From contig DAOUJN010000005.1 of the NCBI GenBank assembly GCA_034422655.1, positions 1,781-65,780 on the forward strand: a stretch of 64,000 nucleotides of DNA, written 5' to 3'. Origin of the DNA: Dehalococcoidia bacterium. GTDB lineage: Bacteria; Chloroflexota; Dehalococcoidia; Lucifugimonadales; UBA3495. How positions within the stretch are numbered: position 1 is the first letter of the stretch; every line of letters begins with the position of its first letter. Positions 7,644 through 40,375 of this stretch are shown one piece after another. The notes under the pieces are model-generated. The model made no database searches. It saw only the letters and a program-made list of their open reading frames with translations, and had not been told where the DNA came from. Both the position numbers and the translations under genes were made by a program.

Positions 7644-7708
7644 ATTGGGTAGGGACGGTGCCGCCGATGGCCGGATTGCTCCGACTGGTTTGCGCCATCC
7701 CTCCCACC

Positions 7709-7742
7709 GAACCGGACGTGCCACTTTCGCGGCATCCGGCTC
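7709..7742 (-). ncRNA. group II intron domain V
   Basis: GAGCCGGATGCCGCGAAAGTGGCACGTCCGGTTC: a 34-nt hairpin with a GAAA tetraloop, the AGC-type catalytic triad position and a 2-nt bulge geometry, located about 65 nt before the 3' splice site. Confidence 0.9.
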
Positions 7743-7746
7743 TCCA

Positions 7747-9507
7747 TCAGATGGTTGGTTGGGCTAGACGGTGTGTAGCTTGGTGGCACACCCGGCAGAG
7801 CGTTACTAGGTTGCTGGGCGCGTGGGACTGCATACCTTTGGCGTGGTGGACTTGCAGATTTGTCCGAGTTCCACACTGTCGGCATTTCATCCCGTCGCGC
7901 AGTTTGGCTAGGAGTTTCCGTTCGGTGAGTTCAAGGGGTTCGTTGCGGCTACGTCTGCCGCTCCTGGCCCCAATCGTCGCCGTGTAGATTTGCTCAGCGG
8001 GGCCGGTGGCTCCCAGGGGAAAGTCGCCTGTGTCCTCCATTGCACCGGACAGGTAGGGGTGCGGGAATCCCGTCTTGCCCTTCTGTCTGTAGCGTTGACG
8101 GACAAGTTCCGTGGGAGTAGGGAGCCATTGGTACGCTTCCAGCGAATGTTCGCCTTGGCGCGTTTCTGCGTGCCAGCGGGTTCTGCCGTGGAGCATTTTG
8201 GTCTTGGTGCGGATGAGCTGTTGTTTGCGGCTGCCCTTGTGCTTCTTGAGCAGCCAGTAGAAGTAGCGGAACCAGGTGAACCGCGTGATTTCCTCGATGT
8301 CCGCCGACAGGCTGGTATACCGGTAGTATTCGGCCCAGCCCTTGACGATAGCGTTGAGAGTGGTCAAGCGGTTGTACTCATCCATCCAGGTCCAGTTCCT
8401 GGAAGTCAGGGCTTTGAGCTTCCGTTTCACTCGCTCTTTGCCTTTGGCCGTCGGACGGAGGTGTACTGCCCACTTGCCGCCGGTGTGCTTGCGCTGGATA
8501 TGGAAACCCAGGAAGTCGAAGCCGTCGTTGACGTGGGTGATCAGGGTCTTTTCCGCCGATAGCGTTAGGTGGAGTTCGTTCTCCAGAAATTGCTGTATGG
8601 CCTGTTTGGTGGCCTTGACCTCGGCTTTGGGGGCATTGCTGACGACCACGAAGTCGTCCGCGTAGCGCACCATCCGGTAGTTGCCGAAGCCCGCCTGCCG
8701 TCTCCGTTGCCGGGCGTAGGAGGTGAGTTCCCATTGCTCCGCTGCCCACCGGTCGAACTCGTTGAGGTAGATGTTGGCGAGTAGCGGTGATATGACGCCC
8801 CCTTGTGGCACACCGGCGTCGGTGCGCTTGAAGAGGCGTCCTTCCATTACGCCCGATTTCAGGAATTTCCAGATGAGGTCCAGCACGTCCTTGTCCGCCA
8901 GCCTTTTCCGCAGCAGCTTCATCAACTTCCGATGGTGGACGGTGTCAAAGTAGCTTTGGAGGTCGCCTTCGATGACGTAGTAGTGTTTGACGCTGGTGTT
9001 GAACAGGGGCATGAGGACCGCGATTGCGTCCATAGTGTTACGACCTTTTCGGAAGCCATAGGAATGGGGTTGAAAGTCGGACTCGTAAATCGGGTCAAGA
9101 ATGGCCCGAAGTGCTTCCTGCACGATGCGGTCCCGTAGGGCTGGGATGCCCAGAGGACGTTGCTTGCCGTCGTGCTTGGGTATGTAGACCCGCCGGACTG
9201 GTTGCGGCGTGTACGTCTTGCGCTTCAGTTGGTCGAGGAGCGTAGTCATCTGGCGCTCGTAGTCCTTCTTGAACGCATCCCGTGTCTTGCCGTCCACTCC
9301 GTTGGTCTGACTGCCCGGTCGTGCCAGAACCCTTTCAGCCGCCGTGTGCATCCAACAGTCCCAATGCAACAGGCTGTACAGGTTGGTGAACCTGTGGGCT
9401 GGATGCTCACTGGCCGTCTTTGCCAGGAACTTTTGCTTTTCTGCCATCTTCGTCGGGTACATACATCCCTTCTCCGGCTTAGTTCGCTCTGGTTCTTTGC
9501 ACTGCAT
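7747..9507 (-). CDS. group II intron reverse transcriptase/maturase with C-terminal HNH endonuclease domain
   Basis: RPLGIPALRDRIVQEAL, GVPQGGVISPLLANIYL and the YADDFVV RT motifs. C-terminal CRQCG...LQVHHAKG...LCRVCHQATH. The true start may be an internal Met at 9462 or 9447. Confidence 0.92.
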   Translation of the reverse strand: MQCKEPERTKPEKGCMYPTKMAEKQKFLAKTASEHPAHRFTNLYSLLHWDCWMHTAAERVLARPGSQTNGVDGKTRDAFKKDYERQMTTLLDQLKRKTYTPQPVRRVYIPKHDGKQRPLGIPALRDRIVQEALRAILDPIYESDFQPHSYGFRKGRNTMDAIAVLMPLFNTSVKHYYVIEGDLQSYFDTVHHRKLMKLLRKRLADKDVLDLIWKFLKSGVMEGRLFKRTDAGVPQGGVISPLLANIYLNEFDRWAAEQWELTSYARQRRRQAGFGNYRMVRYADDFVVVSNAPKAEVKATKQAIQQFLENELHLTLSAEKTLITHVNDGFDFLGFHIQRKHTGGKWAVHLRPTAKGKERVKRKLKALTSRNWTWMDEYNRLTTLNAIVKGWAEYYRYTSLSADIEEITRFTWFRYFYWLLKKHKGSRKQQLIRTKTKMLHGRTRWHAETRQGEHSLEAYQWLPTPTELVRQRYRQKGKTGFPHPYLSGAMEDTGDFPLGATGPAEQIYTATIGARSGRRSRNEPLELTERKLLAKLRDGMKCRQCGTRTNLQVHHAKGMQSHAPSNLVTLCRVCHQATHRLAQPTI

Positions 9508-26023: not shown

Positions 26024-26454
26024 AGCTTCCCCCCTTGCGGCATCACTCCGGCCATTATGTTACCCAAAGAATCGAGATGACGTCTTACTGCAATAGACCA
26101 TACTATATCTTGTGGCCCGGGGCCACCGCCGCCCGACAAGGCTACCAGACCGCTTTTCCCGGCGGGTGACCTAATGGTTCAACCCCCTCCCGGTCGCCGG
26201 GAAATCAGCCCGTTGGGGCCTTCCCGGCCCCTCCATTTTTCGTGAATTTCCACAACATTCCGGGAGCGGGATGGGCGCCGTCCGGGTACCAGGCCAGATA
26301 CGACAGCGGGCTAACCGGGTTCCGGCGTGGCCCCATTTTCTATCTGGCCGCAGCCCCCGCGCCGGAAACAGGCCAGTCTTGCGTGGCGGGACGGCGGGGC
26401 GTAACCTTTTCGTTACCGTTTTTCCGGACCACTTTCCCCCACCGAGTATGCACC

Positions 26455-27837
26455 TTGACAGAAAGATCTGCACGAGACACCTGGATCGCCACCCTCGGGC
26501 AACTGGAAATGGAGTTGCCCAGGGCCACCTTTGACACCTGGCTGAAGGACACGGAAGGGCTTACCTTCGACGGCATGGACCTGCTGGTCCAGGCGCCCAG
26601 CGTATTCACCATCGCCTGGCTGGAACAGCGCATGTACCAGACAATCCTCCGGGCCCTCCGCCAGTCCTCCGGAGACCTGCTGGACGTCCGGTTCCAGGTC
26701 TCCCCCGAGGTGGCCGCGGCAGGGGTACAACCCCCTTCAGTCAACGGGCCGGAGGCTGGCGGAGTGGCTGGCGCAGCGCCCTCCGCCGCACCCCCGCGAT
26801 CCCCAGCGCCCATGACATCGGGGGTCAACTTCGACCGCAAGTACTCCTTCAACAACTTCGTGGTGGGCAATTCCAACCGCATGGCCTTCAGCGCGGCCCA
26901 GGCCGTGGCCGACGCTCCCGGCCAGGCCTACAACCCCCTGTTCCTCTACTCGGGCGTGGGCCTGGGCAAGACCCACCTGCTCCACGCCATCGGCCAGGAG
27001 GCCTCCCGCAACGGCAAGAGCGTCCTCTACGTCTCCTCCGAGCAGTTCACCAACGACTTCATTTCGGCCATCCGCAACCGCACCACCGAGGACTTCCGGC
27101 AGCGGTACCGCAGCGTGCAGGTGCTGCTGATTGACGACGTCCAGTTCATGAGCGGCAAGGAGCAGACCCAGGAGGGTTTTTTCCACACCTTCAACGACCT
27201 CCACACCGCCGGCTACCAGATTGTGCTGACCTCCGACCGGCCGCCCAAGGCCCTGGCCCTGCTGGAAGACCGCCTCCGTTCCCGTTTCGAGTGGGGGCTC
27301 ATTGCCGACATCCAGCCACCGGACCTGGAGACCCGCATGGCCATCCTGTCCACCAAGGCCGAGCAGCTCAACACCATCATCGAGGAGAGCGTACTGGAAC
27401 TGATCGCCAAGCGGGTGCAGAAGAACGTGCGCGAACTGGAGGGCAGCCTGAACCGGGTCGTGGCCTTCTCCCAGCTGATGAGCGTGCCCGTCAGCATGGA
27501 GTCCACCTCCCGGCTGCTGGACGACCTGACCCTGGACACGGCCCGCCACGCCATTGACCCGGAGCGGATTCTCGAAGCCGTATCCCGCCAGTACAAGGTA
27601 ACCACCCACGATCTGCTGGGCCGCCGCCGCAGCAAGACCATCGCCCTGGCCCGCCAGATAGCCATGTACCTGCTCATCTACGAACTGGAGCTATCCCCCA
27701 CCGAGGTAGGCCGCCTGCTGGGCAACCGGGACCACTCCACCGTCATCCACGGAGCCGGCAAAATCAACGGCGAGATCAACGAAGACTACCAGCTCCGCCA
27801 GAACGTGCTGACGATTAAGGAAGCGATCTTCACCTGA
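26455..27837 (+). CDS. dnaA: chromosomal replication initiator DnaA
   Basis: ...WIATLGQLEMELPRATFDTWLKD..., Walker A YSGVGLGKTHLLHAIG, LLIDDVQF, the sensor region and C-terminal domain IV ...IALARQIAMYL...GNRDHSTVIHG. The start is uncertain: the ORF opens at 26242, and TTG at 26455 gives a conventional N-terminus. Confidence 0.93.
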   Translation: MTERSARDTWIATLGQLEMELPRATFDTWLKDTEGLTFDGMDLLVQAPSVFTIAWLEQRMYQTILRALRQSSGDLLDVRFQVSPEVAAAGVQPPSVNGPEAGGVAGAAPSAAPPRSPAPMTSGVNFDRKYSFNNFVVGNSNRMAFSAAQAVADAPGQAYNPLFLYSGVGLGKTHLLHAIGQEASRNGKSVLYVSSEQFTNDFISAIRNRTTEDFRQRYRSVQVLLIDDVQFMSGKEQTQEGFFHTFNDLHTAGYQIVLTSDRPPKALALLEDRLRSRFEWGLIADIQPPDLETRMAILSTKAEQLNTIIEESVLELIAKRVQKNVRELEGSLNRVVAFSQLMSVPVSMESTSRLLDDLTLDTARHAIDPERILEAVSRQYKVTTHDLLGRRRSKTIALARQIAMYLLIYELELSPTEVGRLLGNRDHSTVIHGAGKINGEINEDYQLRQNVLTIKEAIFT

Positions 27838-29450: not shown

Positions 29451-29522
29451 GGAATTATAAATTAAGAATTACGAATTGACCCCTTTGTCCGAGTCAGGTC
29501 TTAATTCCTAATTCTTAACTCT
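29451..29522. repeat. family B inverted-repeat element between obg and nadD
   Basis: GGAATTATAAATTAAGAATTACGAATTGACCCC...GGTCTTAATTCCTAATTCTTAACTC. The arms are complementary, so it may act as an obg terminator. Confidence 0.7.
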
Positions 29523-33208: not shown

Positions 33209-33606
33209 GGTCCCTCCTGTATTTTGGAATGCTCCTGAATCCGGGTTCCGTTAAGGGTGACCCATGCCGAGCCCAGCACCGGCCCCGCATGTTAAGGGAA
33301 GGTTAACAGATTCTAGAGTGGCCGGTGGGCAAAAGCAACATACCTCGCAATACCGGCACAACGAGCCCGGGCAACGAGTTTTCTAATCTACTGACACTTG
33401 CCCATTGACGCTCTGGAAAACCCGTCTTTAGCCTGAACAATATCGGGTGAGACGGGGAAAGTCGCCGCCAACCGGCGACTGGCGGACAATCGAACAGGGC
33501 GGGCCAAATGCGTCCGCAACCAACGCGAGGGACTGACCTTTGTGGCTCGGTCCCTTCTGTTGTCCCCGCGCCCACCCGACCAAATCCAGGAAAAGGAGGT
33601 GAAAAA

Positions 33607-34308
33607 TTGAAGGCAATGTTTCCCGAAGGCGTTGATTCCCCGCAGGAACGCCAAGGGCTGCTGGAATCCCTGGAGACCTACCGCCGGGGCCTGGCCGACG
33701 CGCCCCTGCTGCGGAAATGGGGCGGCGGGCCGGCCGGAGGCCGCGGGGTGGCGGTCGAGGACGCGGACGGCTTCCCTCGCTCCCAAAAGAACGCCGATAC
33801 GGAGGCCCCCATGACCTTCGTAATTTCCAGCGAGGAGGTGGACCGCCACGGCGACGTGGTCCTGGCCCAGGGCTGGCGGCTGCAGGCTTACCTGCAAAAC
33901 CCCGTCCTCCTGTGGGCCCACGACTATGGCCGTCCCGTCATCGGCCGCGCCCTGGCCGTGTGGCCCGAGCCGGGGCAGCTTCTGGCCCGCCTGGAGTTCG
34001 CCCCCACCGAATTCGCCAGCCACGTGGCTGCCCTGTACCGGGGTGGCTACCAGCACGGCGTGTCGGTGGGCTTCAGGCCCCTGCGGTACGAGGAGCGGCG
34101 CGACCCCAGGACCGGCGCCTTCCTGGGCATCCGCTTCCTGGAGCAGGAACTGCTCGAGGTGAGCGCCGTTCCGGTCCCGGCCAACCGTCACGCTCTGCGC
34201 CGGGCCGCTCAATCCACGAATGGGCACGAATCATCACCAATAGTGGAATCCATCATCGCGGTTATTCGTGAAAATTCGTGGTCATTCGTGGAAAAAAAGA
34301 ACAGTTAA
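33607..34308 (+). CDS. HK97-family phage prohead protease
   Basis: ...MTFVISSEEVDRHGDVVLAQGWRLQAYLQNPVLLWAHDYGRPVIG...GVSVGF...LLEVSAVPVPAN is a Peptidase_S78/U35-like core. TTG at 33607 lies 5 nt after AAGGAGGTG. The last roughly 30 codons lie inside a family A repeat. Confidence 0.8.
   Translation: MKAMFPEGVDSPQERQGLLESLETYRRGLADAPLLRKWGGGPAGGRGVAVEDADGFPRSQKNADTEAPMTFVISSEEVDRHGDVVLAQGWRLQAYLQNPVLLWAHDYGRPVIGRALAVWPEPGQLLARLEFAPTEFASHVAALYRGGYQHGVSVGFRPLRYEERRDPRTGAFLGIRFLEQELLEVSAVPVPANRHALRRAAQSTNGHESSPIVESIIAVIRENSWSFVEKKNS
34211..34292. repeat. family A element, copy 6 (overlaps the protease 3' end)
   Basis: AATCCACGAATGGGCACGAATCATCACC...TTATTCGTGAAAATTCGTGGTCATTCGTGGA. Confidence 0.85.
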
Positions 34309-34319
34309 AGGAGTAACTC

Positions 34320-35651
34320 ATGACACTGGCAAATCAGGATATCGAACTCATCAAGCGCGAAGTGGCCGGCATACGGGACTTCTACCAGTCCCGCCTGGAC
34401 GCCGAACTGCCGCCCCTGCAGGAAGAGGTGGGCCGCATCTCCGCCCAGCTGGGACGGGTGCAAGAACAGTGGCGCGACGGCGAACGCCGCTCCATCCTGG
34501 CCAAATTCGGCGGCGACGACCGCCCCCGCGTAACCCACGGCAAGTACCGGGGCATGGACGCCCTGTCCCTGGCCTACGTCCGCAGCGTGCTCAACGCTCA
34601 GCTGCGCGAACCGGCCGGCCTGAACCAGCGCATGCTGGAGGACTGGCAGAACAATCTCAAGGCCGCCCTGGACAGCACCACCGCCGGCACGGGCGACGAA
34701 CTGGTGGCCACCGCCGAGGCTTCCGCCCTGTGGAGCGATGTCAACCTGGAAACCCTGATCGCGCCCCTCTTCTCCAGGGTGGATATGCCCACCAACCCCT
34801 TTGAAATTCCCCTGCAACTGGGCGGCGTTACCTGGTACCCCGGCTCGGAGAACACCGCCGTCACCGGTTCAGCCCCCGCCACCGCCCGCCAAACGCTGAC
34901 GGCCCACGAACTGGTGGCCGAGGTGCCCTGGTCGCTGACCCTGGACGAGGACGCCGTCATCGCCATGGCCGAGGAGGTCCGCAGTTCCCTGGTGCGCAAC
35001 GCGGTGGAGGTCATTGACGACGTGCTGCTCAACGCCGATACCACTGCGGCCAACAACATCAACGCCGACGGCGCCACCATCGCCGCCACCACCGCCGGCA
35101 AGGGCCACTGGCTGGTCGGCTTCGACGGCCTGCTCCACCTGCCCCTGGTGGACAACGCCACCCAGGCCAACAACCACAACGCCGCCGTCAGCGACGCCAT
35201 GTTCAACGAAATTCGCGGCAAGCTGGGCAAGTACGGCGTCCGCCCTTCCGAACTGGCCTACGTCATGGACGTGAGCACCTACATCAAGTCGCTGACGGTG
35301 GACAACTTCCGCACCCTGGACAAGCTGGGCGGCAACGCCACCCTGCTGCGGGGCCAGCTTGGTGCGGTGGAGGGCATCCCCGTCATCGTCTCCGAGCAGA
35401 TGGCCACCGCCGACGCCGACGGCAAGGTTACCGACGACGGCAACGCCAACACCAAGGGACGTCTGCTCATCACCAACCGCACCCAGTGGCGGCTGGGCTT
35501 CCGCCGCGAACTGCTCATCGAGACCACCCGCGACATTCAGAAGCGGCAGAACATCATGGTGGTCAGCATGCGCCTCGCCTTCATGGAGCGCACCGGTAAG
35601 CGCAGCGCGGCCACCCACACGGCCCTGCAGTACAACATCACCGGCGTCTAG
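34320..35651 (+). CDS. HK97-family phage major capsid protein
   Basis: 443 aa. N-terminal coiled-coil delta-like region, then ...GDELVATAEASALWSDVNLETLIAPLFSRVDMPTNPFEIPL...TAHELVAEVPWS..., which is typical of TIGR01554-type capsids. AAAGGAG ribosome-binding site. Confidence 0.88.
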   Translation: MTLANQDIELIKREVAGIRDFYQSRLDAELPPLQEEVGRISAQLGRVQEQWRDGERRSILAKFGGDDRPRVTHGKYRGMDALSLAYVRSVLNAQLREPAGLNQRMLEDWQNNLKAALDSTTAGTGDELVATAEASALWSDVNLETLIAPLFSRVDMPTNPFEIPLQLGGVTWYPGSENTAVTGSAPATARQTLTAHELVAEVPWSLTLDEDAVIAMAEEVRSSLVRNAVEVIDDVLLNADTTAANNINADGATIAATTAGKGHWLVGFDGLLHLPLVDNATQANNHNAAVSDAMFNEIRGKLGKYGVRPSELAYVMDVSTYIKSLTVDNFRTLDKLGGNATLLRGQLGAVEGIPVIVSEQMATADADGKVTDDGNANTKGRLLITNRTQWRLGFRRELLIETTRDIQKRQNIMVVSMRLAFMERTGKRSAATHTALQYNITGV

Positions 35652-35667
35652 GCCCAACACGGTTATT

Positions 35668-35749
35668 GATCCACGAATAGGCACGAATTTTCACGAATGG
35701 GATTGGGGCAAATAAATCATTAGTGAATATTCGTGTCTATTCGTGGATA
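35668..35749. repeat. family A element, copy 7
   Basis: GATCCACGAATAGGCACGAATTTTCACGAATGG...GTGAATATTCGTGTCTATTCGTGGATAG. Confidence 0.85.
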
Positions 35750-35768
35750 GAAAAAGTTGGAGTAATTT

Positions 35769-36578
35769 ATGACCAACGCCTATTGCGACCTGGCCCTGCT
35801 CAAGTCCGGCGGCGCCCTGAACATCACCGGTGCCGCCCACGACCGGCGCCTGCTGGCCCTGCTGGAGCAGGCATCCCGGATCATCGACGGCCACTGCAAC
35901 CGCCATTTCTACGTCCTGCGCGCCGCCCGGCAGTTCGAGGCCAGCCGGTGGTCGGCGGGGATTCAGCAGTTGCTGGTCCCCGATCTCATCGCCGCTGACT
36001 CCGTGCGGGTGGCCGCCGCGCTTGACGGCCCGCCCGGCGAACCCCGGTGGCGGGCCGCGTCCTACCGGCTCTATCCCCTGGACGCCGCCCCCGACCGGCC
36101 CTGGGGCCGGCCTTACACCCGCATGGCCATTGACCCGGCCGGCCTGCCACTGCGTCACGGCGCCGACGGCAACGCCCTGGTGGAAGTCGCCGGCCGCTGG
36201 GGCTACCGGCAGGTGGTCACCGGCACGGACGCTACCCTGGCCGCCGACGTGGCCGGGGCGGACGGCACGCTCACCTTCACTGGCGGCGCCGCCTTCGCCC
36301 CGGGCCAGACCCTTTCGGTGGACGACGAGCAGCTTCACGTAACCGCCGTAACCGACGCCACCGTGACGGTGGACCGCGCCGTCAACGGCACGTCCGCCGC
36401 CGCCCATAACTCCGGCGCCGCCATCGGCGTCTACGCCTACCCCGCCCCGGTGGTGGAGGCCTGCCTGCAGCTAGCCATGTGGCTCTGGCGAGGCGACCAG
36501 CAACCCACGCAGGAGCGCAGCGGCCTGGGTCGGGAGATGGAAACCCTGCTCGCCCCCTACCGCAAGCTGCCTGTCTAA
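35769..36578 (+). CDS. phage head-tail adaptor (gp6-like) with an inserted domain
   Basis: N-terminus MTNAYCDLALLKSGGALNITG...LLALLEQASRIIDGHCNRHF is gp6-connector-like. Central ...LSVDDEQLHVTAVTDATVTVDRAVNGTSAAAHNSGAAI is a motif common in phage structural proteins. Assignment from memory only. Confidence 0.55.
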   Translation: MTNAYCDLALLKSGGALNITGAAHDRRLLALLEQASRIIDGHCNRHFYVLRAARQFEASRWSAGIQQLLVPDLIAADSVRVAAALDGPPGEPRWRAASYRLYPLDAAPDRPWGRPYTRMAIDPAGLPLRHGADGNALVEVAGRWGYRQVVTGTDATLAADVAGADGTLTFTGGAAFAPGQTLSVDDEQLHVTAVTDATVTVDRAVNGTSAAAHNSGAAIGVYAYPAPVVEACLQLAMWLWRGDQQPTQERSGLGREMETLLAPYRKLPV

Positions 36579-36584
36579 CCGGCT

Positions 36585-36664
36585 AATCCACGAATAGACA
36601 CGAATGAGCACTAATGGAATAAGGAAAAAATTTCTTCGTACCCCTTCGTGTCCTTCGTGGATAA
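36585..36664. repeat. family A element, copy 8 (degenerate right arm)
   Basis: AATCCACGAATAGACACGAATGAGCACTAATGG...CTTCGTACCCCTTCGTGTCCTTCGTGGATAAA. Confidence 0.8.
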
Positions 36665-36680
36665 ATGAAGGAGAAAAGCT

Positions 36681-37103
36681 ATGAGCCTGATTGCAGTAAG
36701 GGACGAACTGGCAAAGCGCCTGGCCACCCTGGACGGACTGCGGGTCTACCCCGTCCCGCCCGACACCGTGCCGCAACTGCCCGCCGCCATCATCCAGCCC
36801 GGCCAGCCCCTGGCCGAGTACGGCCGCACCCTGTCCGGCGGCGATGTTACCTACGCCTTCGCCGTCCTGCTCCTGACCCAATCCGGCGACGACGAGCAGG
36901 CCTGGCGGGACCTGGCCGCCCGCCTGGCCCCTACCGGTCCGCCTCAGGCGGACTCGGTCAAGGCCGCCGTGGAAACCCCGGTCAACACCGGCCCCGCCGA
37001 CTGGTTCCGCGTCCTCCGCGCCACCGAAGGCGGCCCCATAACCTACCGCAAAACCACCTACTGGGGCGCAACCTTCCAAGTCCAAGCCTACGTCGGCGGG
37101 TAA
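36681..37103 (+). CDS. phage tail-terminator / tail-completion-like protein (DUF3168-like)
   Basis: 140 aa. MSLIAVRDELAKRLATLDGLRVYPVPPDTVPQLPAAIIQPG... matches the typical N-terminal pattern of this family. Position between adaptor and tube. Confidence 0.5.
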   Translation: MSLIAVRDELAKRLATLDGLRVYPVPPDTVPQLPAAIIQPGQPLAEYGRTLSGGDVTYAFAVLLLTQSGDDEQAWRDLAARLAPTGPPQADSVKAAVETPVNTGPADWFRVLRATEGGPITYRKTTYWGATFQVQAYVGG

Positions 37104-37105
37104 CG

Positions 37106-37145
37106 AAGAAAAATTCTTATTTCCTAATTCTTAATTCGTAATTCA
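37106..37145. repeat. family B repeat (single arm)
   Basis: AAGAAAAATTCTTATTTCCTAATTCTTAATTCGTAATTC. Confidence 0.6.
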
Positions 37146-37154
37146 GGAGGCCCC

Positions 37155-37595
37155 ATGGCCAGGGTGCCCGTCGCAGGCAACAGCTACATCGAAATCAACG
37201 ACTCCGGCGGCGTTCCCCGTAACCTGTCCGCCTGGGTCGAGGAGGTGGAACCCCTGGGCCAGCAGGTGTCGGCGGTGGACGTTACCGCCCTGAACGACAC
37301 GTCCCGCCAGGTGGTGAAGGGCGTCGAACCGGTGCAGGAGTTCATCCTGCGCGGCCTCTTCGACGACACCCCAGTAACCGGCCCCGACGCCGTCCTGGCC
37401 GGCATCGTGGGCCAGGTGGTGACCGTTGCCTATGGCCCGGCGGGCAACCGGGCGGGCCAGCGGAAAATCTCGGGCCAATTTCTCTGCCTGTCCTACCAGG
37501 TCGGCGGTCGCGCCGAAGAGAGCCGTAACCCCGGCCTGGTTCGCTTCACCGCCCGCTTCCGCCAGTCCGGTCCCGTAACCCTGGGCACCTGGTAA
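37155..37595 (+). CDS. phage major tail (tube)-like protein
   Basis: 146 aa. ...IEINDSGGVPRNLSAWVEEVEPLGQQVSAVDVTALNDTSRQVVKGVEPVQEFILRGLFDD...VAYGPAGN... resembles TP901-1/GTA-type tube proteins in size and pattern. Confidence 0.5.
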   Translation: MARVPVAGNSYIEINDSGGVPRNLSAWVEEVEPLGQQVSAVDVTALNDTSRQVVKGVEPVQEFILRGLFDDTPVTGPDAVLAGIVGQVVTVAYGPAGNRAGQRKISGQFLCLSYQVGGRAEESRNPGLVRFTARFRQSGPVTLGTW

Positions 37596-37603
37596 CCCGC
37601 AGT

Positions 37604-37632
37604 GCGTAGGGGCGGCCCTTGTGACCGCCCTT
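37604..37632. repeat. family D-like hairpin (degenerate)
   Basis: GCGTAGGGGCGGCCCTTGTGACCGCCCTT. Shares the CGTAGGGGCG 5' part with 3464 and 44417. Confidence 0.45.
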
Positions 37633-37667
37633 GCCCCAACAATCCAACAATCGGAGGCACAAGACTA

Positions 37668-39701
37668 ATGCCAAATCCCCACTGGCGTATCTGGGTGGAC
37701 TGGAACGACAACGTGACCTGGGCCGAAACGTCCGGCCCCTACCGCGAGGACATCACCGCCGACGTGCTGGACCTGGACTGGCGCTGGGGCCGGCCCGTGG
37801 GTTCCTTCCGCGCTCCGGCCCGTCCCCGGCCCGCCCGCCTGGACCTTACCTTGGGCAATGAAGACCGCCGCTACACCCCCGGCAACGACCGGTCGCCCCT
37901 GGCCGGCAGCCTGGCCGCCGGCCGCCGTGTCTGGGCTGCCTTTGCCTGGCCCTATGACGGCTTTGCCGGGGCGGACGACCAGGACCTGCACGGTCGCGCC
38001 GTCCCAGTGGGCGAATCGTCCTGGGCCAAGATCTCCACTGGCCCCGCCGGCCTGGCCCTGTCCGAGGGGCGGGCAGCAGCCACGGCGGGAACCGGCGGCG
38101 CCGTCTATGCCCTGGACTTTGGCGACCCCGACGCCCACCTGGGCTTTATCTTCCGGCGCAACAGCGACGGCAGCAGCGGCGTGGCCCTGCGTGTGGCCAG
38201 CCGGTGGGACTACCTGCGCGTTAGCTTCGGCAATACCGCCACCCTGCTGGAGGACGTTACCTTCGGCTTCCCATCCACCATACGCCGGGGCGACCCGCTG
38301 GAGGCCGGGCGCGACTACTTCATCGAAATCGAAATGCACGGCGGCTCGGTGCATCTCTACGCCACCGACCTGGACGGCGGCGATATGGACCGCCGGGAAA
38401 TCCTGGACGGCGGTGGGACTGCCGGCAACGCCGCCGCTACCAGGCACGGCATCTGGCACGATGGTACCGCCGCCGCCGCCGGCGACCGCTGGGGCGATTT
38501 CGGCGGCTGGCGCAGTTTCTTTCACGGCGCCCTGGTCCGCATCTCCCCCGAACGGGACCCCGACCTGGGCCAGGTCTGCCGCGTCCGCGCCGAGGACGAC
38601 CTGCGGCTGCTGGAGCGGCGGCCCCTGTACCACTTGTTCAACCGGCGTCTCCTGTCCTCCGCCGCCATCGCCAACGGCATTCTCACCTGGGCCGGCTTCA
38701 ACGCCGGCTACCGACGCCTGGACCCCGGCCGCACTTTGGTGGCTTCCTCGCCCCGGGCCCTGTGGGGCCTCTCCGCCATCGAGGCCCTTTCCGACCTGGC
38801 CGAGGAGGAGAACGGACGCGTCTACGTGGACGGTCGCGGCTACTTCCGCCTGGAAGCCGCCGACCACCGGCAGTCCGGCCCCCACGCCGCGTCCGTGACC
38901 ACCCTGCGCGACACGTCGGCCGTCGGCCCGTACTTCTCCGCCCTGGATTGGGACGAGGGCAGCGAGGGAGTGGAGAACTCGGTAATCTTCCGCTACCGCC
39001 AGGCCGTCAACGCCGGCGCCCAGAAAATCTGGCGGCTGCGCGACGTCCCCGCCATACCCGTCGGCGAAAGCCGCGACTTCCTGGCCGAGAGCGGCAGCTA
39101 CGACGCCGTGGACGGCATCCGCGTCCCCGTTGCCGTCACCGACTACGCCGCCAACTCCCGTTCCGGCGGCGACGGCGACGACCTGACCGCCAGCATTGCC
39201 GTAACCCTGCCCCACGTTGCCGGCGGCGCGCTGGCATCGCCGTCCGACTCCTACGTGGGCCGGGGCACGGTGGTGCGAGTAACCAACACCCACGCTACCG
39301 CCACCGCCTACGTAACCCTGCTGAAGCTCACCGCCAACCGCGCCTACCAGGCCCCGGATCCCACCAGCTACCGGGCCGAGGACGCCGCCAGCCAAACCGC
39401 CCACGGCCTGCGCGCCCATACGGTGGACTGCCGCTTCATCGACCACTACGAGGCCGCCAAGTCAGCCGCCGACGCCCGCCTGTCCGACCGCCGCCGGCCC
39501 CGTACTCAACTGGTCCTTGCCATCCCCGCCGGCTCCGGCGCAAACCTGGCCCAGATAGTCCACCGCGTCCTGTCCGACCGCATCACCGTCGTCGGCGACA
39601 ACCCCGTCCTGAACGCCGACTTCTACATCGAAGGAATGGAACTCCAGGCCACCGCCCGCACCGGCCACCTAACCGCCCGCTGGCACGTCCAGGAGGCCTA
39701 A
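37668..39701 (+). CDS. phage distal-tail (Dit)-like protein with a large central insertion
   Basis: ATG at 37668 follows GGAGG. N-terminus ...RIWVDWNDNVTWAETSGPYREDITADVLDLDWRWGR...RLDLTLGNEDRRYTPGN and C-terminus ...RITVVGDNPVLNADFYIEGMELQATARTGHLTARWHV follow the pattern I associate with siphovirus Dit / minor tail proteins. The central part (about residues 130-300) could be a lectin-like insert. Confidence 0.5.
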   Translation: MPNPHWRIWVDWNDNVTWAETSGPYREDITADVLDLDWRWGRPVGSFRAPARPRPARLDLTLGNEDRRYTPGNDRSPLAGSLAAGRRVWAAFAWPYDGFAGADDQDLHGRAVPVGESSWAKISTGPAGLALSEGRAAATAGTGGAVYALDFGDPDAHLGFIFRRNSDGSSGVALRVASRWDYLRVSFGNTATLLEDVTFGFPSTIRRGDPLEAGRDYFIEIEMHGGSVHLYATDLDGGDMDRREILDGGGTAGNAAATRHGIWHDGTAAAAGDRWGDFGGWRSFFHGALVRISPERDPDLGQVCRVRAEDDLRLLERRPLYHLFNRRLLSSAAIANGILTWAGFNAGYRRLDPGRTLVASSPRALWGLSAIEALSDLAEEENGRVYVDGRGYFRLEAADHRQSGPHAASVTTLRDTSAVGPYFSALDWDEGSEGVENSVIFRYRQAVNAGAQKIWRLRDVPAIPVGESRDFLAESGSYDAVDGIRVPVAVTDYAANSRSGGDGDDLTASIAVTLPHVAGGALASPSDSYVGRGTVVRVTNTHATATAYVTLLKLTANRAYQAPDPTSYRAEDAASQTAHGLRAHTVDCRFIDHYEAAKSAADARLSDRRRPRTQLVLAIPAGSGANLAQIVHRVLSDRITVVGDNPVLNADFYIEGMELQATARTGHLTARWHVQEA

Positions 39702-39714
39702 CCCGCAACACTTC

Positions 39715-39742
39715 CGTAGAGGCAGACCTGCGTGTCTGCTCC
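39715..39742. repeat. family D-like hairpin (degenerate)
   Basis: CGTAGAGGCAGACCTGCGTGTCTGCTCC, with stem GCAGAC/GTCTGC. Confidence 0.4.
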
Positions 39743-39752
39743 AGCCCCTAAC

Positions 39753-39849
39753 CGTCATACCGGCGAAAGCCGGTATCCAGAAATCCTGCCTGACAGGCGC
39801 CGTGCCTGCGGCTTTACCCTTCTGGGTTCCGGCTTTCGCCGGAACGACG
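39753..39849. repeat. composite inverted pair of family C units
   Basis: CGTCATACCGGCGAAAGCCGGTATCCAG ...41 bp... CTGGGTTCCGGCTTTCGCCGGAACGACG. Same architecture as 58624-58720. Confidence 0.8.
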
Positions 39850-39970
39850 TTTTACCCCGAACCAGACTTGCCGAGTCCGGGCCCAGGCCCCCCGTTTGCC
39901 CCCGCCCCGTCCATCCCTTACAATTCCGCCCAAGCTACCCGAACCATTTGCACCTGGGGAGGCGCCTACC

Positions 39971-40375
39971 ATGACACAGGAACCGGCCCGATGCGATGCC
40001 TGCGGTCGTGAACTGGACGAGCGGCCCTTCGACCCCTACCAGGTACCCGTGTCCGTGAACCCCAATCCCGACGAACCGAAGAACTTCGTCGAGCGCAGCC
40101 TCAAGCAGCACATCCAGACCCTGGACAGGCTCTCCGGGCAGCTGGACGAACTGCTGGAACTGGTGCGGGCCGGGAAGGACGACGACGGCCAGGTCCTGGA
40201 ACTGCTGGACCTGCTCCGCCAGTACATGAAGCCCCGCCACGGCCTGTGCATCGACGGCCACTGCGCCCCCTGCCGCGTCCACGAGGAAGCCATCAAGGAG
40301 CACGTCCTGCTCTACATAGACTGGAAAATCCCCGGCACCGTCGAAAAGCTCCAGCAAGCCCGCCACCGCAACTAA
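39971..40375 (+). CDS. hypothetical Cys-containing protein
   Basis: 134 aa. MTQEPARCDACGRELD... with CxxC near the N-terminus and CIDGHCAPC near the C-terminus. ATG follows GGGGAGG. No family recognised. Confidence 0.55.
   Translation: MTQEPARCDACGRELDERPFDPYQVPVSVNPNPDEPKNFVERSLKQHIQTLDRLSGQLDELLELVRAGKDDDGQVLELLDLLRQYMKPRHGLCIDGHCAPCRVHEEAIKEHVLLYIDWKIPGTVEKLQQARHRN

Follow-up and report, generated by a model that had tools for sequence, protein, structure and literature searches.

The 64,000-nucleotide stretch of a Dehalococcoidia bacterium analyzed here (assembly GCA_034422655.1, contig DAOUJN010000005.1; hereafter the window) carries at positions 33607-39701 a block of six co-directional, intact open reading frames (ORFs) of phage head, neck and tail type. 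We read this block as the operon for the head, neck and tail of a phage-derived particle system that is spread over several loci, is inherited vertically in SAR202-type Dehalococcoidia and resembles gene transfer agents (GTAs), and on the sequence comparisons given below we put the probability of this reading at about 0.55. In organization, the combination of structural and packaging genes only, host-like inheritance, apparent purifying selection and dispersed loci fits a GTA. An initial annotation, made from the letters of the window, had described six intact co-directional frames, each with a Shine-Dalgarno site; the ORF list and the GGAG-type site found before each of the six agree with that description. 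The genes are as follows.

33607/33616-34308, + strand: p1 (PROT), ~233 aa, prohead protease, HK97-type S78 serine protease.
34320-35651, + strand: p2 (MCP), 443 aa, HK97-fold major capsid protein with an N-terminal delta-like region.
35769-36578, + strand: p3 (ADAPT), 269 aa, head-tail adaptor with an inserted beta domain at about residues 130-225.
36681-37103, + strand: p4 (TTERM), 140 aa, tail terminator.
37155-37595, + strand: p5 (TUBE), 146 aa, tail tube (major tail) protein.
37668-39701, + strand: p6 (HUB), 677 aa, predicted gp27/Tal-like tail hub with a ConA/CBM66-like lectin insert at about residues 120-300.

The start of p1 is a TTG at 33607, 5 nt 3' of AAGGAGGTG, in agreement with the 233-aa gene call of the public record.

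Pfam and PHROG profiles support all five identities previously proposed for p1 to p5, namely protease, HK97 capsid protein, adaptor with an insert, terminator and tube. The protease matches PF04586 (S78; 2.5e-6), PHROG 617 (1.5e-21) and PHROG 80 (1.9e-17), while the major capsid protein (MCP) matches PF05065 (5e-9) and PHROG 10 (1.4e-12), and its family profile matches T5-type capsid proteins in the PDB. p3 matches the head-tail adaptor PHROG 442 (1.6e-7), and its AlphaFold model, made with homologues from a search of representative sequences, has a pLDDT of 90.1; the sole PDB match of that model below 1e-3 is the neck adaptor of the Rhodobacter capsulatus GTA, RcGTA (6toa_D, E 2.9e-4). The form of this protein, an adaptor of 270-290 aa with a beta-rich insert, is widespread (2034 representative clusters). 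Profile searches also back the tail terminator, which matches PHROG 17840 over its full length (3.1e-20), and the tube, which matches the major tail protein family PHROG 10528 (2.5e-10 for the window's protein, 1.7e-22 for a distant orthologue); a sequence-profile search of the PDB with the tube protein gave nothing. Relatives in cultured phages are only remote, the nearest proteins being 21-28% identical (MCP ~21% to T5-like phages, tube ~27% to Arthrobacter phages).

The sixth protein had been called Dit-like, and a hub or Tal protein had been counted among the missing parts; neither statement survives structure prediction. p6 has no Pfam or PHROG match, and a sequence-profile search of the PDB found nothing for the hub. 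Its AlphaFold model (pLDDT 88.9, pTM 0.86) matches gp27-type hubs in a Foldseek search of the PDB with probability 1.00 and E values of 1e-11 to 1e-6, among them the VgrG spikes of extracellular contractile injection systems and of type VI secretion systems (T6SS), Mu gp44, T4 gp27, T5 pb3, lambda gpJ and phage Tal. The matched entries 7aef_q, 3d37, 7q5p, 7zqp_b, 3cdd, 1wru and 2z6b_D lie at E 3e-11 to 1e-6, and the best alignments, to trimeric gp27, Mu gp44, VgrG and Tal, span ~540 columns. The insert matches concanavalin A (ConA)- and CBM66-like lectin folds (CBM66 at 1e-5). In the BFVD the best match is A0A1B1IPF7 (E 3e-57, TM 0.76), and matches there include siphovirus tail proteins with ConA-like domains. 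A Dit identity is rejected, as the best matches of the fold search are trimeric hubs, whereas a Dit would have a hexamer-forming belt domain and a galectin-like domain. The model identifies p6 as a predicted gp27/Tal-type tail hub with a lectin insert, so that "no hub/Tal" should read "no Dit", and the lectin domain is the probable receptor-binding part.

To place the block among its relatives, gene content was compared across 80 loci. Full-length homologues of the hub fall into 102 protein clusters and come from 93 species-level genomes. The titles of these name Dehalococcoidia, SAR202 or Chloroflexota with a single exception, a metagenome-assembled genome of Phototrophicaceae; sponge or marine metagenomes are the source of many, and many of the genes lie on chromosomes of 2-4.7 Mb. 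Intact hub ORFs of 650-700 aa persist across the 80 loci, down to 33% identity, and the tube adjoins the hub in 75 of them. Four arrangements are seen.

Type A (the window's clade): PROT-MCP-ADAPT-TTERM-TUBE-HUB, order kept, ~35 species, hub 51-83% identical.
Type B: MCP, several small genes, then ADAPT-TTERM-TUBE-c12-c18-HUB-c8; loci L043, L046 and L071 and viral contig L085.
Type C: TUBE-c12-c18-HUB-c8 only, with host neighbors.
Type D: TUBE-HUB-c8 only, in conserved host synteny.

The description of the block as an orphan module is thus overturned, as an identical gene order is found in about 35 species-level genomes of Dehalococcoidia/SAR202. The type A block often occupies an identical chromosomal site, in several genomes with the flanks SBP_bac_5 ... 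DUF1385-L27-L21. The terminator or the tube goes undetected in a few genomes.

Some features of the more distant loci are recorded here in their own right. TUBE-HUB-c8 islands lie at about 9400-12300 in L051, L055, L057, L058, L061, L063, L066, L069, L073, L075 and L078, with ABC-transporter-like genes upstream and c23/c25 genes downstream, and in each a near-consensus TTGACA-17-TATATT promoter leads straight into the hairpin described below. The c8 protein (71 aa, with a hydrophobic stretch) follows the hub only in the distant clades, types B-D. No Pfam or PHROGs match was found for p7, c12, c18, c8, c20, x421 or x538.

Substitution patterns were measured for the window and its six nearest relatives, where dS is unsaturated (0.24-0.53). 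The dN/dS values are 0.13 for MCP, 0.27 for TUBE, 0.30 for PROT, 0.32 for HUB, 0.35 for TTERM and 0.38 for ADAPT, and those of host neighbors are 0.075-0.087. Across type A the capsid protein is 77-94% identical, above adjacent host proteins (e.g., 92-93% vs 77% for DUF1385), and of 1377 matches to its family, the best 120 are all at least 73% identical. Identities of MCP, ADAPT, TTERM, TUBE and HUB track those of the host gene for the substrate-binding protein (SBP), with a Spearman rho of 0.72-0.85 (n=11-12). Taken together, these comparisons indicate that the six genes are under purifying selection and are inherited vertically with the chromosome. The long residence previously proposed, as opposed to recent decay of a prophage, is borne out by the order kept in ~35 species, by these correlations and by dN/dS; the comparison of synteny and dN/dS in related genomes finds the block syntenic and all six ratios far below 1. 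An intact or recently decayed HK97-like siphovirus prophage is rejected on the same ratios, on the absence from the window of an integration, lysogeny or lysis module, of contiguous terminase and portal genes and of a tape measure, and on the low identity to cultured-phage proteins.

The block has also been treated by its genome as ordinary DNA. Every spacer was said to carry repeat families that recur elsewhere in the window, and copies of families A, B, C and D-like are confirmed at the following positions (no strand assigned).

34209-34295, 35669-35751 and 36586-36662: family A copies in the module, palindromic, REP-like.
37112-37144: family B, an AT-rich heptamer repeat in the terminator-tube spacer; also at 255-280 and 29452-29521.
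39716-39852: D-like hairpin and family C palindrome downstream of the hub gene; inverted repeat I3.

Family A is a palindromic REP-like element with units TCCACGAAT/CACGAAT, and its 26 half-site matches at ~10 sites of the window compare with 0.25 expected. Families B, C and D-like recur between housekeeping genes, with further copies of C at 303, 58693 and 61033 and of D-like at 957, 3479, 37606, 50437 and 57935. L007 and L009 have family A copies in the matching spacers, whereas L005, L008 and L010 have none there; family A is therefore a host-wide repeat whose invasion is recent and lineage-specific. This invasion shows that the block behaves as ordinary host DNA. One family A copy overlaps the last ~30 codons of the protease gene (34209-34308); homologues end in a conserved ..(E/D)(V/L)LAALRxxxW, and here the repeat arms encode IIAVIRENSW. 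Judged from this alignment, the protease frame and a motif-like C terminus survive the insertion.

The initial annotation had stressed what the block lacks. A tblastn search of the 64-kb window with a relative's TerL (large terminase) and portal proteins gives no match, and none of the relatives' chaperone-like, tape-measure-like and other accessory genes is present in it, which confirms the reported absence of portal, terminase, chaperone and tape measure. Integrase, repressor, replication and lysis genes, the first two and the last of which had likewise been reported missing, are found neither beside the block in the window nor at the related module loci examined, and holin/endolysin release genes neither in the window nor next to the module. 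No attachment (att) sites and no canonical small terminase gene (TerS) were identified.

Related genomes, by contrast with this window, hold the packaging genes. Locus L087, on a 1.9-Mb chromosome, is a contiguous cluster with host genes on either side, in the order zinc-ribbon ORF, TerL, portal, x421, an opposite-strand trypsin-like gene, PROT, MCP, x150, ADAPT, TTERM, x538; its TerL matches PHROG 2 (5e-40) and its portal PF04860 (3e-64). Its x538 was considered as a hub analogue and rejected by hhalign. A search with a reconstructed portal gave 946 homologues, the best 120 of which are 65-92% identical; the portal family, like that of MCP, is large and strongly conserved. Some of the matches sit on chromosomes with known type A modules, as listed here.

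OZ219748.1: TerL and portal both intact, ~150 kb from the module.
CBDAVT010000002.1: TerL and portal both intact, ~190 kb from the module.
OY730415.1: portal intact, TerL split by a 2.9-kb insertion with a DNA methyltransferase, ~620 kb from the module.

L092 and L214 are further host-flanked terminase-portal islands, and in L213 the pair lies ~4 kb downstream of a tail module. Where the sequence upstream of TerL was read (L026, L087 and L089-L092), TerL is preceded by a zinc-ribbon ORF of 51-75 aa. Intact TerL and portal genes at distant sites on relatives' chromosomes argue that the system is multi-locus in the window's clade. In all, three relatives have intact TerL and portal genes at distant loci of the same chromosome, and in two others these genes are disrupted. 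The earlier suggestion that partner genes lie elsewhere is borne out in relatives (TerL and portal 150-620 kb away), and in this genome such genes may lie outside the window.

Other genes lie next to these loci. At L087 (1304-2599 and 7382-8785) a reductive-dehalogenase-like Fe-S protein adjoins the cluster, and the opposite-strand trypsin-like gene lies between the portal-side genes and PROT; in L088 and L003, too, Trypsin_2 genes are found near the modules. Beside TerL-portal islands, genes for DNA N6/N4 methyltransferases are seen repeatedly: in L089 (5534-9897) a methyltransferase-bearing 2.9-kb insertion splits TerL and a second methyltransferase with a ResIII helicase lies downstream, and in L090 (13045-13938) an HTH_17-methyltransferase gene lies downstream of the portal.

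The separate loci are tied together by non-coding sequence in front of their operons. Two elements precede the protease gene in the window.

33391-33434, + strand: conserved promoter, CTGACAC-N7-TTGACG (-35)-N17-TTAGCCT (-10-like).
33529-33563, + strand: leader hairpin, GGGACTGACC...GGCTCGGTCCC followed by a U-rich run, intrinsic-terminator-like.

Within the 407 bp upstream of p1, some blocks do not vary between diverged genomes, and TTGAC and TA..CT are unchanged in 8/8 diverged orthologous upstream regions. The same promoter architecture precedes the TerL-portal operons of L089-L092 (CTGACAC-TTGACG-TTAGCGT), and the form common to the window's PROT operon and the relatives' TerL-portal operons is CTGACAC-N7-8-TTGACG-N17-TTAGC(C/G)T. 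A scan for consensus promoters and terminators missed both the promoter and the hairpin.

The hairpin is present in 63 distinct copies in family loci, nearly all at the 5' end of PROT, TUBE or TerL operons, with one true copy in the window. Type A loci have it in front of PROT and L087 in front of both the TerL operon and the PROT operon, and the TerL-portal islands of the type A relatives L089-L092 are preceded by a variant. The hairpin of types B, C and D comes before TUBE, right after near-consensus TTGACA-17-TATAAT promoters, and starts ~10-15 nt past the -10 box, while in the window it lies ~95 nt past the -10-like box within a structured leader. Among 47 copies aligned with RNAalifold, the variable stem pair is AU in 24, CG in 6, UG in 5, GC in 5, UA in 4 and GU in 2, with 1 break, a pattern indicating that this single variable stem position covaries through compensatory changes. 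The p1 leader (33441-33577) folds as a closed three-hairpin structure (minimum free energy -75 kcal/mol, z -2.95) in which ATCGGGTGAGACGG pairs with CCACCCGACC, both of them conserved blocks. The longer multi-stem fold was set aside, as RNAalifold on type A leaders supports the terminator-like hairpin only, and Rfam returns no known RNA family in the p1 leader. A metagenome scan with a degenerate hairpin pattern gave at least 120 matches, with 5 family loci among the matches listed and no new operon; the loosened pattern is unspecific outside the family and matches other sequences.

Because the hairpin lies between a conserved promoter and the first structural gene and is repeated at separate loci, it is best read as a putative common attenuator of those loci, although it could instead be a 5' stabilizing stem. 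The shared promoter and hairpin offer a sequence handle by which the rest of the regulon and its switching factor could be found.

How such a system would work can be sketched from its parts. Transcription from the shared promoter would stop at the leader hairpin unless an antitermination factor acts, and antitermination would switch on all loci together, by analogy with lambdoid late genes. A head of protease and capsid protein would next be built on a portal supplied in trans and packed with DNA by the terminase. To it would attach a short tail, composed of adaptor, terminator, tube and hub and lacking a tape measure, and the lectin domain of the hub would bind a cell-surface glycan. A more specific version of the GTA-like reading, which we regard as possible but put somewhat below even odds, is that of an independently domesticated system of about nine genes (zinc-ribbon ORF, TerL and portal; protease-capsid-adaptor-terminator-tube-hub) at two or more co-regulated loci, silenced by a shared promoter-proximal terminator and making a tail in which the tube sits directly on the lectin-bearing hub. 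If this is true, Chloroflexota would have their first GTA-like system, with a tail of a new, minimal architecture.

A number of observations count against the GTA-like reading. The likeness is one of gene content, inheritance and control sequences. The evidence for partner genes comes from relatives' chromosomes, this genome having been read over the 64-kb window only, and the nearest complete relatives (3.59- and 3.75-Mb chromosomes) are not among the best 120 of the 946 portal matches. TerL of OY730415.1 is disrupted by its 2.9-kb insertion, and in the type A locus L026 TerL and portal, 7-9 kb downstream of the hub, are frameshifted. The structural genes themselves are damaged in places: L012 has an IS21 element inside the protease gene, L016, L033, L038 and L042 have a broken MCP or none, and L041 and L064 have an interrupted hub. 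In about 40 genomes only TUBE-HUB(-c8) is kept, in some of them together with a chaperone-like gene, and capsid genes are absent from the surrounding 10 kb. Finally, the search for a tape measure, a chaperone, a Dit, a stopper and lysis genes of the module found none, and siphophage tails are not known to form in the absence of a tape measure.

The strongest rival, which we consider improbable, is that the genes were exapted for a function without DNA packaging: capsid and protease might form a compartment, and tube and lectin hub a separate surface or secreted device, in which case head and tail would be linked by history only. The ~40 genomes with TUBE-HUB(-c8) only keep the near-consensus promoter, the hairpin and conserved host synteny, although their capsid genes may lie elsewhere. 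In T6SS, the Hcp tube can stack on a gp27-like hub, VgrG, without a tape measure. TerL is broken in two genomes examined in which the structural genes are intact, and tape measure and chaperone genes appear to have been lost stepwise. What holds this alternative back is purifying selection on the adaptor and the tail terminator, for which no role is known unless a portal and a filled head are present; moreover, in the wider family the conservation of portal and TerL equals that of MCP, and the promoter and hairpin of the window's protease gene are shared by the TerL-portal loci of four relatives.

The stepwise loss is suggested by a phage-like contig. A hub-profile scan of 2.9 million viral contigs gave 2 related contigs only, one of which, L086 (IMG/VR UViG_3300003690_000297), carries a homologous ADAPT-TTERM-TUBE-chaperone-(tape-measure-like)-HUB set. 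Its c12 homologue follows directly after the tube and precedes coiled-coil proteins of 277 and 284 aa in the tape-measure position. The presence in L086 of c12 together with tape-measure-like genes suggests that the tape measure went first and the chaperone next, with tube and hub retained, and the module may derive from a free-living phage lineage of which L086 is a representative. L086 (1143-13270) also has two paralogues of the tube, a 1105-aa protein that follows its capsid gene, a chaperone-like region in two frames and, besides the hub, a 61-aa protein with a hydrophobic C-terminal stretch. Loss of tape measure and chaperone with tube and hub under selection bears on which parts a long-tailed phage tail needs.

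Next in weight, and doubtful, is a non-functional ancient prophage remnant that decays slowly and is kept by chance or hitch-hiking. Insertion sequence (IS) elements, frameshifts and deletions strike different genes in different genomes, host repeats sit in every spacer and in the protease 3' end, and tape measure, Dit and lysis genes are missing, all as expected of decay. Chance retention is hard to square with dN/dS of 0.13-0.38 at unsaturated dS, with a capsid protein conserved above neighboring host proteins, with intact hub ORFs down to 33% identity in 80 loci, and with a non-coding promoter and hairpin conserved through compensatory changes. Weakest of all, a helper-dependent satellite-like element or chromosomal parts kit, completed by the tape measure, Dit and lysis functions of an infecting phage, would explain a gene set incomplete for an autonomous tail, the existence of compatible phages such as L086 and a leader terminator open to a phage-encoded antiterminator, but it is countered by the lack of integrase, excisionase, replication and small-terminase redirection genes, by a fixed, vertically inherited position, by the TerL and portal that relatives possess and by the scarcity of related viral contigs.

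The surroundings of the block are those of a host chromosome. The window is part of a 533-kb metagenome scaffold, the G+C content of the block (64-70%) is not distinct from the remaining window, and host genes flank it (dnaA, obg, nadD, ABC SBP, BNR, pentapeptide, MFS and DUF1385). On the left its neighbor is an ABC substrate-binding protein gene on the opposite strand, in agreement with the initial annotation, and BNR, pentapeptide, MFS and DUF1385 genes lie downstream. dnaA is ~6 kb upstream (26242-27837, against a module start at 33607). Membership of one further gene is uncertain.

39971-40375, + strand: 134-aa Cys-rich coiled-coil protein, block membership uncertain.

This protein has a CxxC ... 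CxxxxCxxC motif and a coiled-coil region, and no family match was found in Pfam or PHROGs. Its gene has its own sigma70-like promoter at 39896-39924, and the protein (cluster c61) invariably follows the hub in the nearest sub-clade, with a dN/dS of 0.17. The same slot after the hub holds an unrelated ~100-aa gene, c20, in more distant type A loci and c8 in types B-D. Far from the block, Rfam identifies a group II intron catalytic domain (RF00029) at 7644-7744 on the - strand (63.5 bits, E 3.7e-10); a 586-aa ORF that adjoins it (7747-9507, - strand) may be the reverse transcriptase/maturase of the intron.

To our knowledge, GTAs are known from a few lineages only: Alphaproteobacteria, Bartonella, Brachyspira, Desulfovibrio and Methanococcus. 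A full-text literature search found no GTA and no conserved or domesticated capsid module described for Chloroflexota, SAR202 or Dehalococcoidia. The hosts, SAR202-type Dehalococcoidia, are abundant in the deep and dark ocean and in sponge symbioses, and the GTA-like reading, if true, would add an independent domestication event and a possible route of gene exchange in uncultured Chloroflexota.

Of known systems, the closest in organization is RcGTA of R. capsulatus and its alphaproteobacterial relatives (PMC7296036; PDB 6TOA/6TBA). Both have phage-derived head-tail genes without a replication or lysogeny module, vertical inheritance with purifying selection, and genes spread over several, probably co-regulated loci. 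Both also follow the order protease-capsid-adaptor-...-terminator-tube-...-hub, and the best PDB match of the adaptor model is the RcGTA neck adaptor. However, the phylum is another, and no sequence homology is detected beyond generic HK97-type folds. TerL and portal head the RcGTA cluster, whereas here they lie apart from the structural operon; a stopper, chaperones, a tape measure, a Dit, a peptidase and a megatron were not found here, and the hub here has a lectin insert. Control here is apparently by a leader terminator, as against the CtrA/GafA type of RcGTA. Membership in the RcGTA homologous family is rejected, the adaptor fold (6toa_D) being the only RcGTA-specific match and the other parts of that cluster being absent.

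Three other systems share single traits with the block. Lambdoid late control (PR', tR', Q) likewise sets a strong promoter almost directly before a terminator-like hairpin upstream of structural genes, but no Q-like gene or qut site was identified here, and antitermination here is our inference. As in the Hcp-VgrG pairs of T6SS, the hub has a gp27/VgrG fold with the tube gene directly upstream, no tape measure is present and pairs also occur as isolated islands; in contrast, the tube here matches siphophage major tail families and not Hcp, no sheath or baseplate genes are seen, the hub is without a gp5-type needle, and the tube-hub pair is linked to capsid and neck genes. Capsid-forming phage-inducible chromosomal islands (PICIs) similarly keep a compact HK97-type set of capsid, protease and connector in the chromosome without a full phage genome, whereas this block includes tail genes, stays at a fixed, syntenic site in different species and diverges in step with the host. 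A capsid-forming PICI or other satellite is rejected on that fixed site and on the absence of satellite-type integrase, regulatory and replication genes from the 64-kb window and from the 10-kb flanks of related loci. Set beside all of these, what would be new is that such a system was domesticated independently in another phylum, with its genes split between loci, a leader terminator common to these and a tail built without a tape measure.

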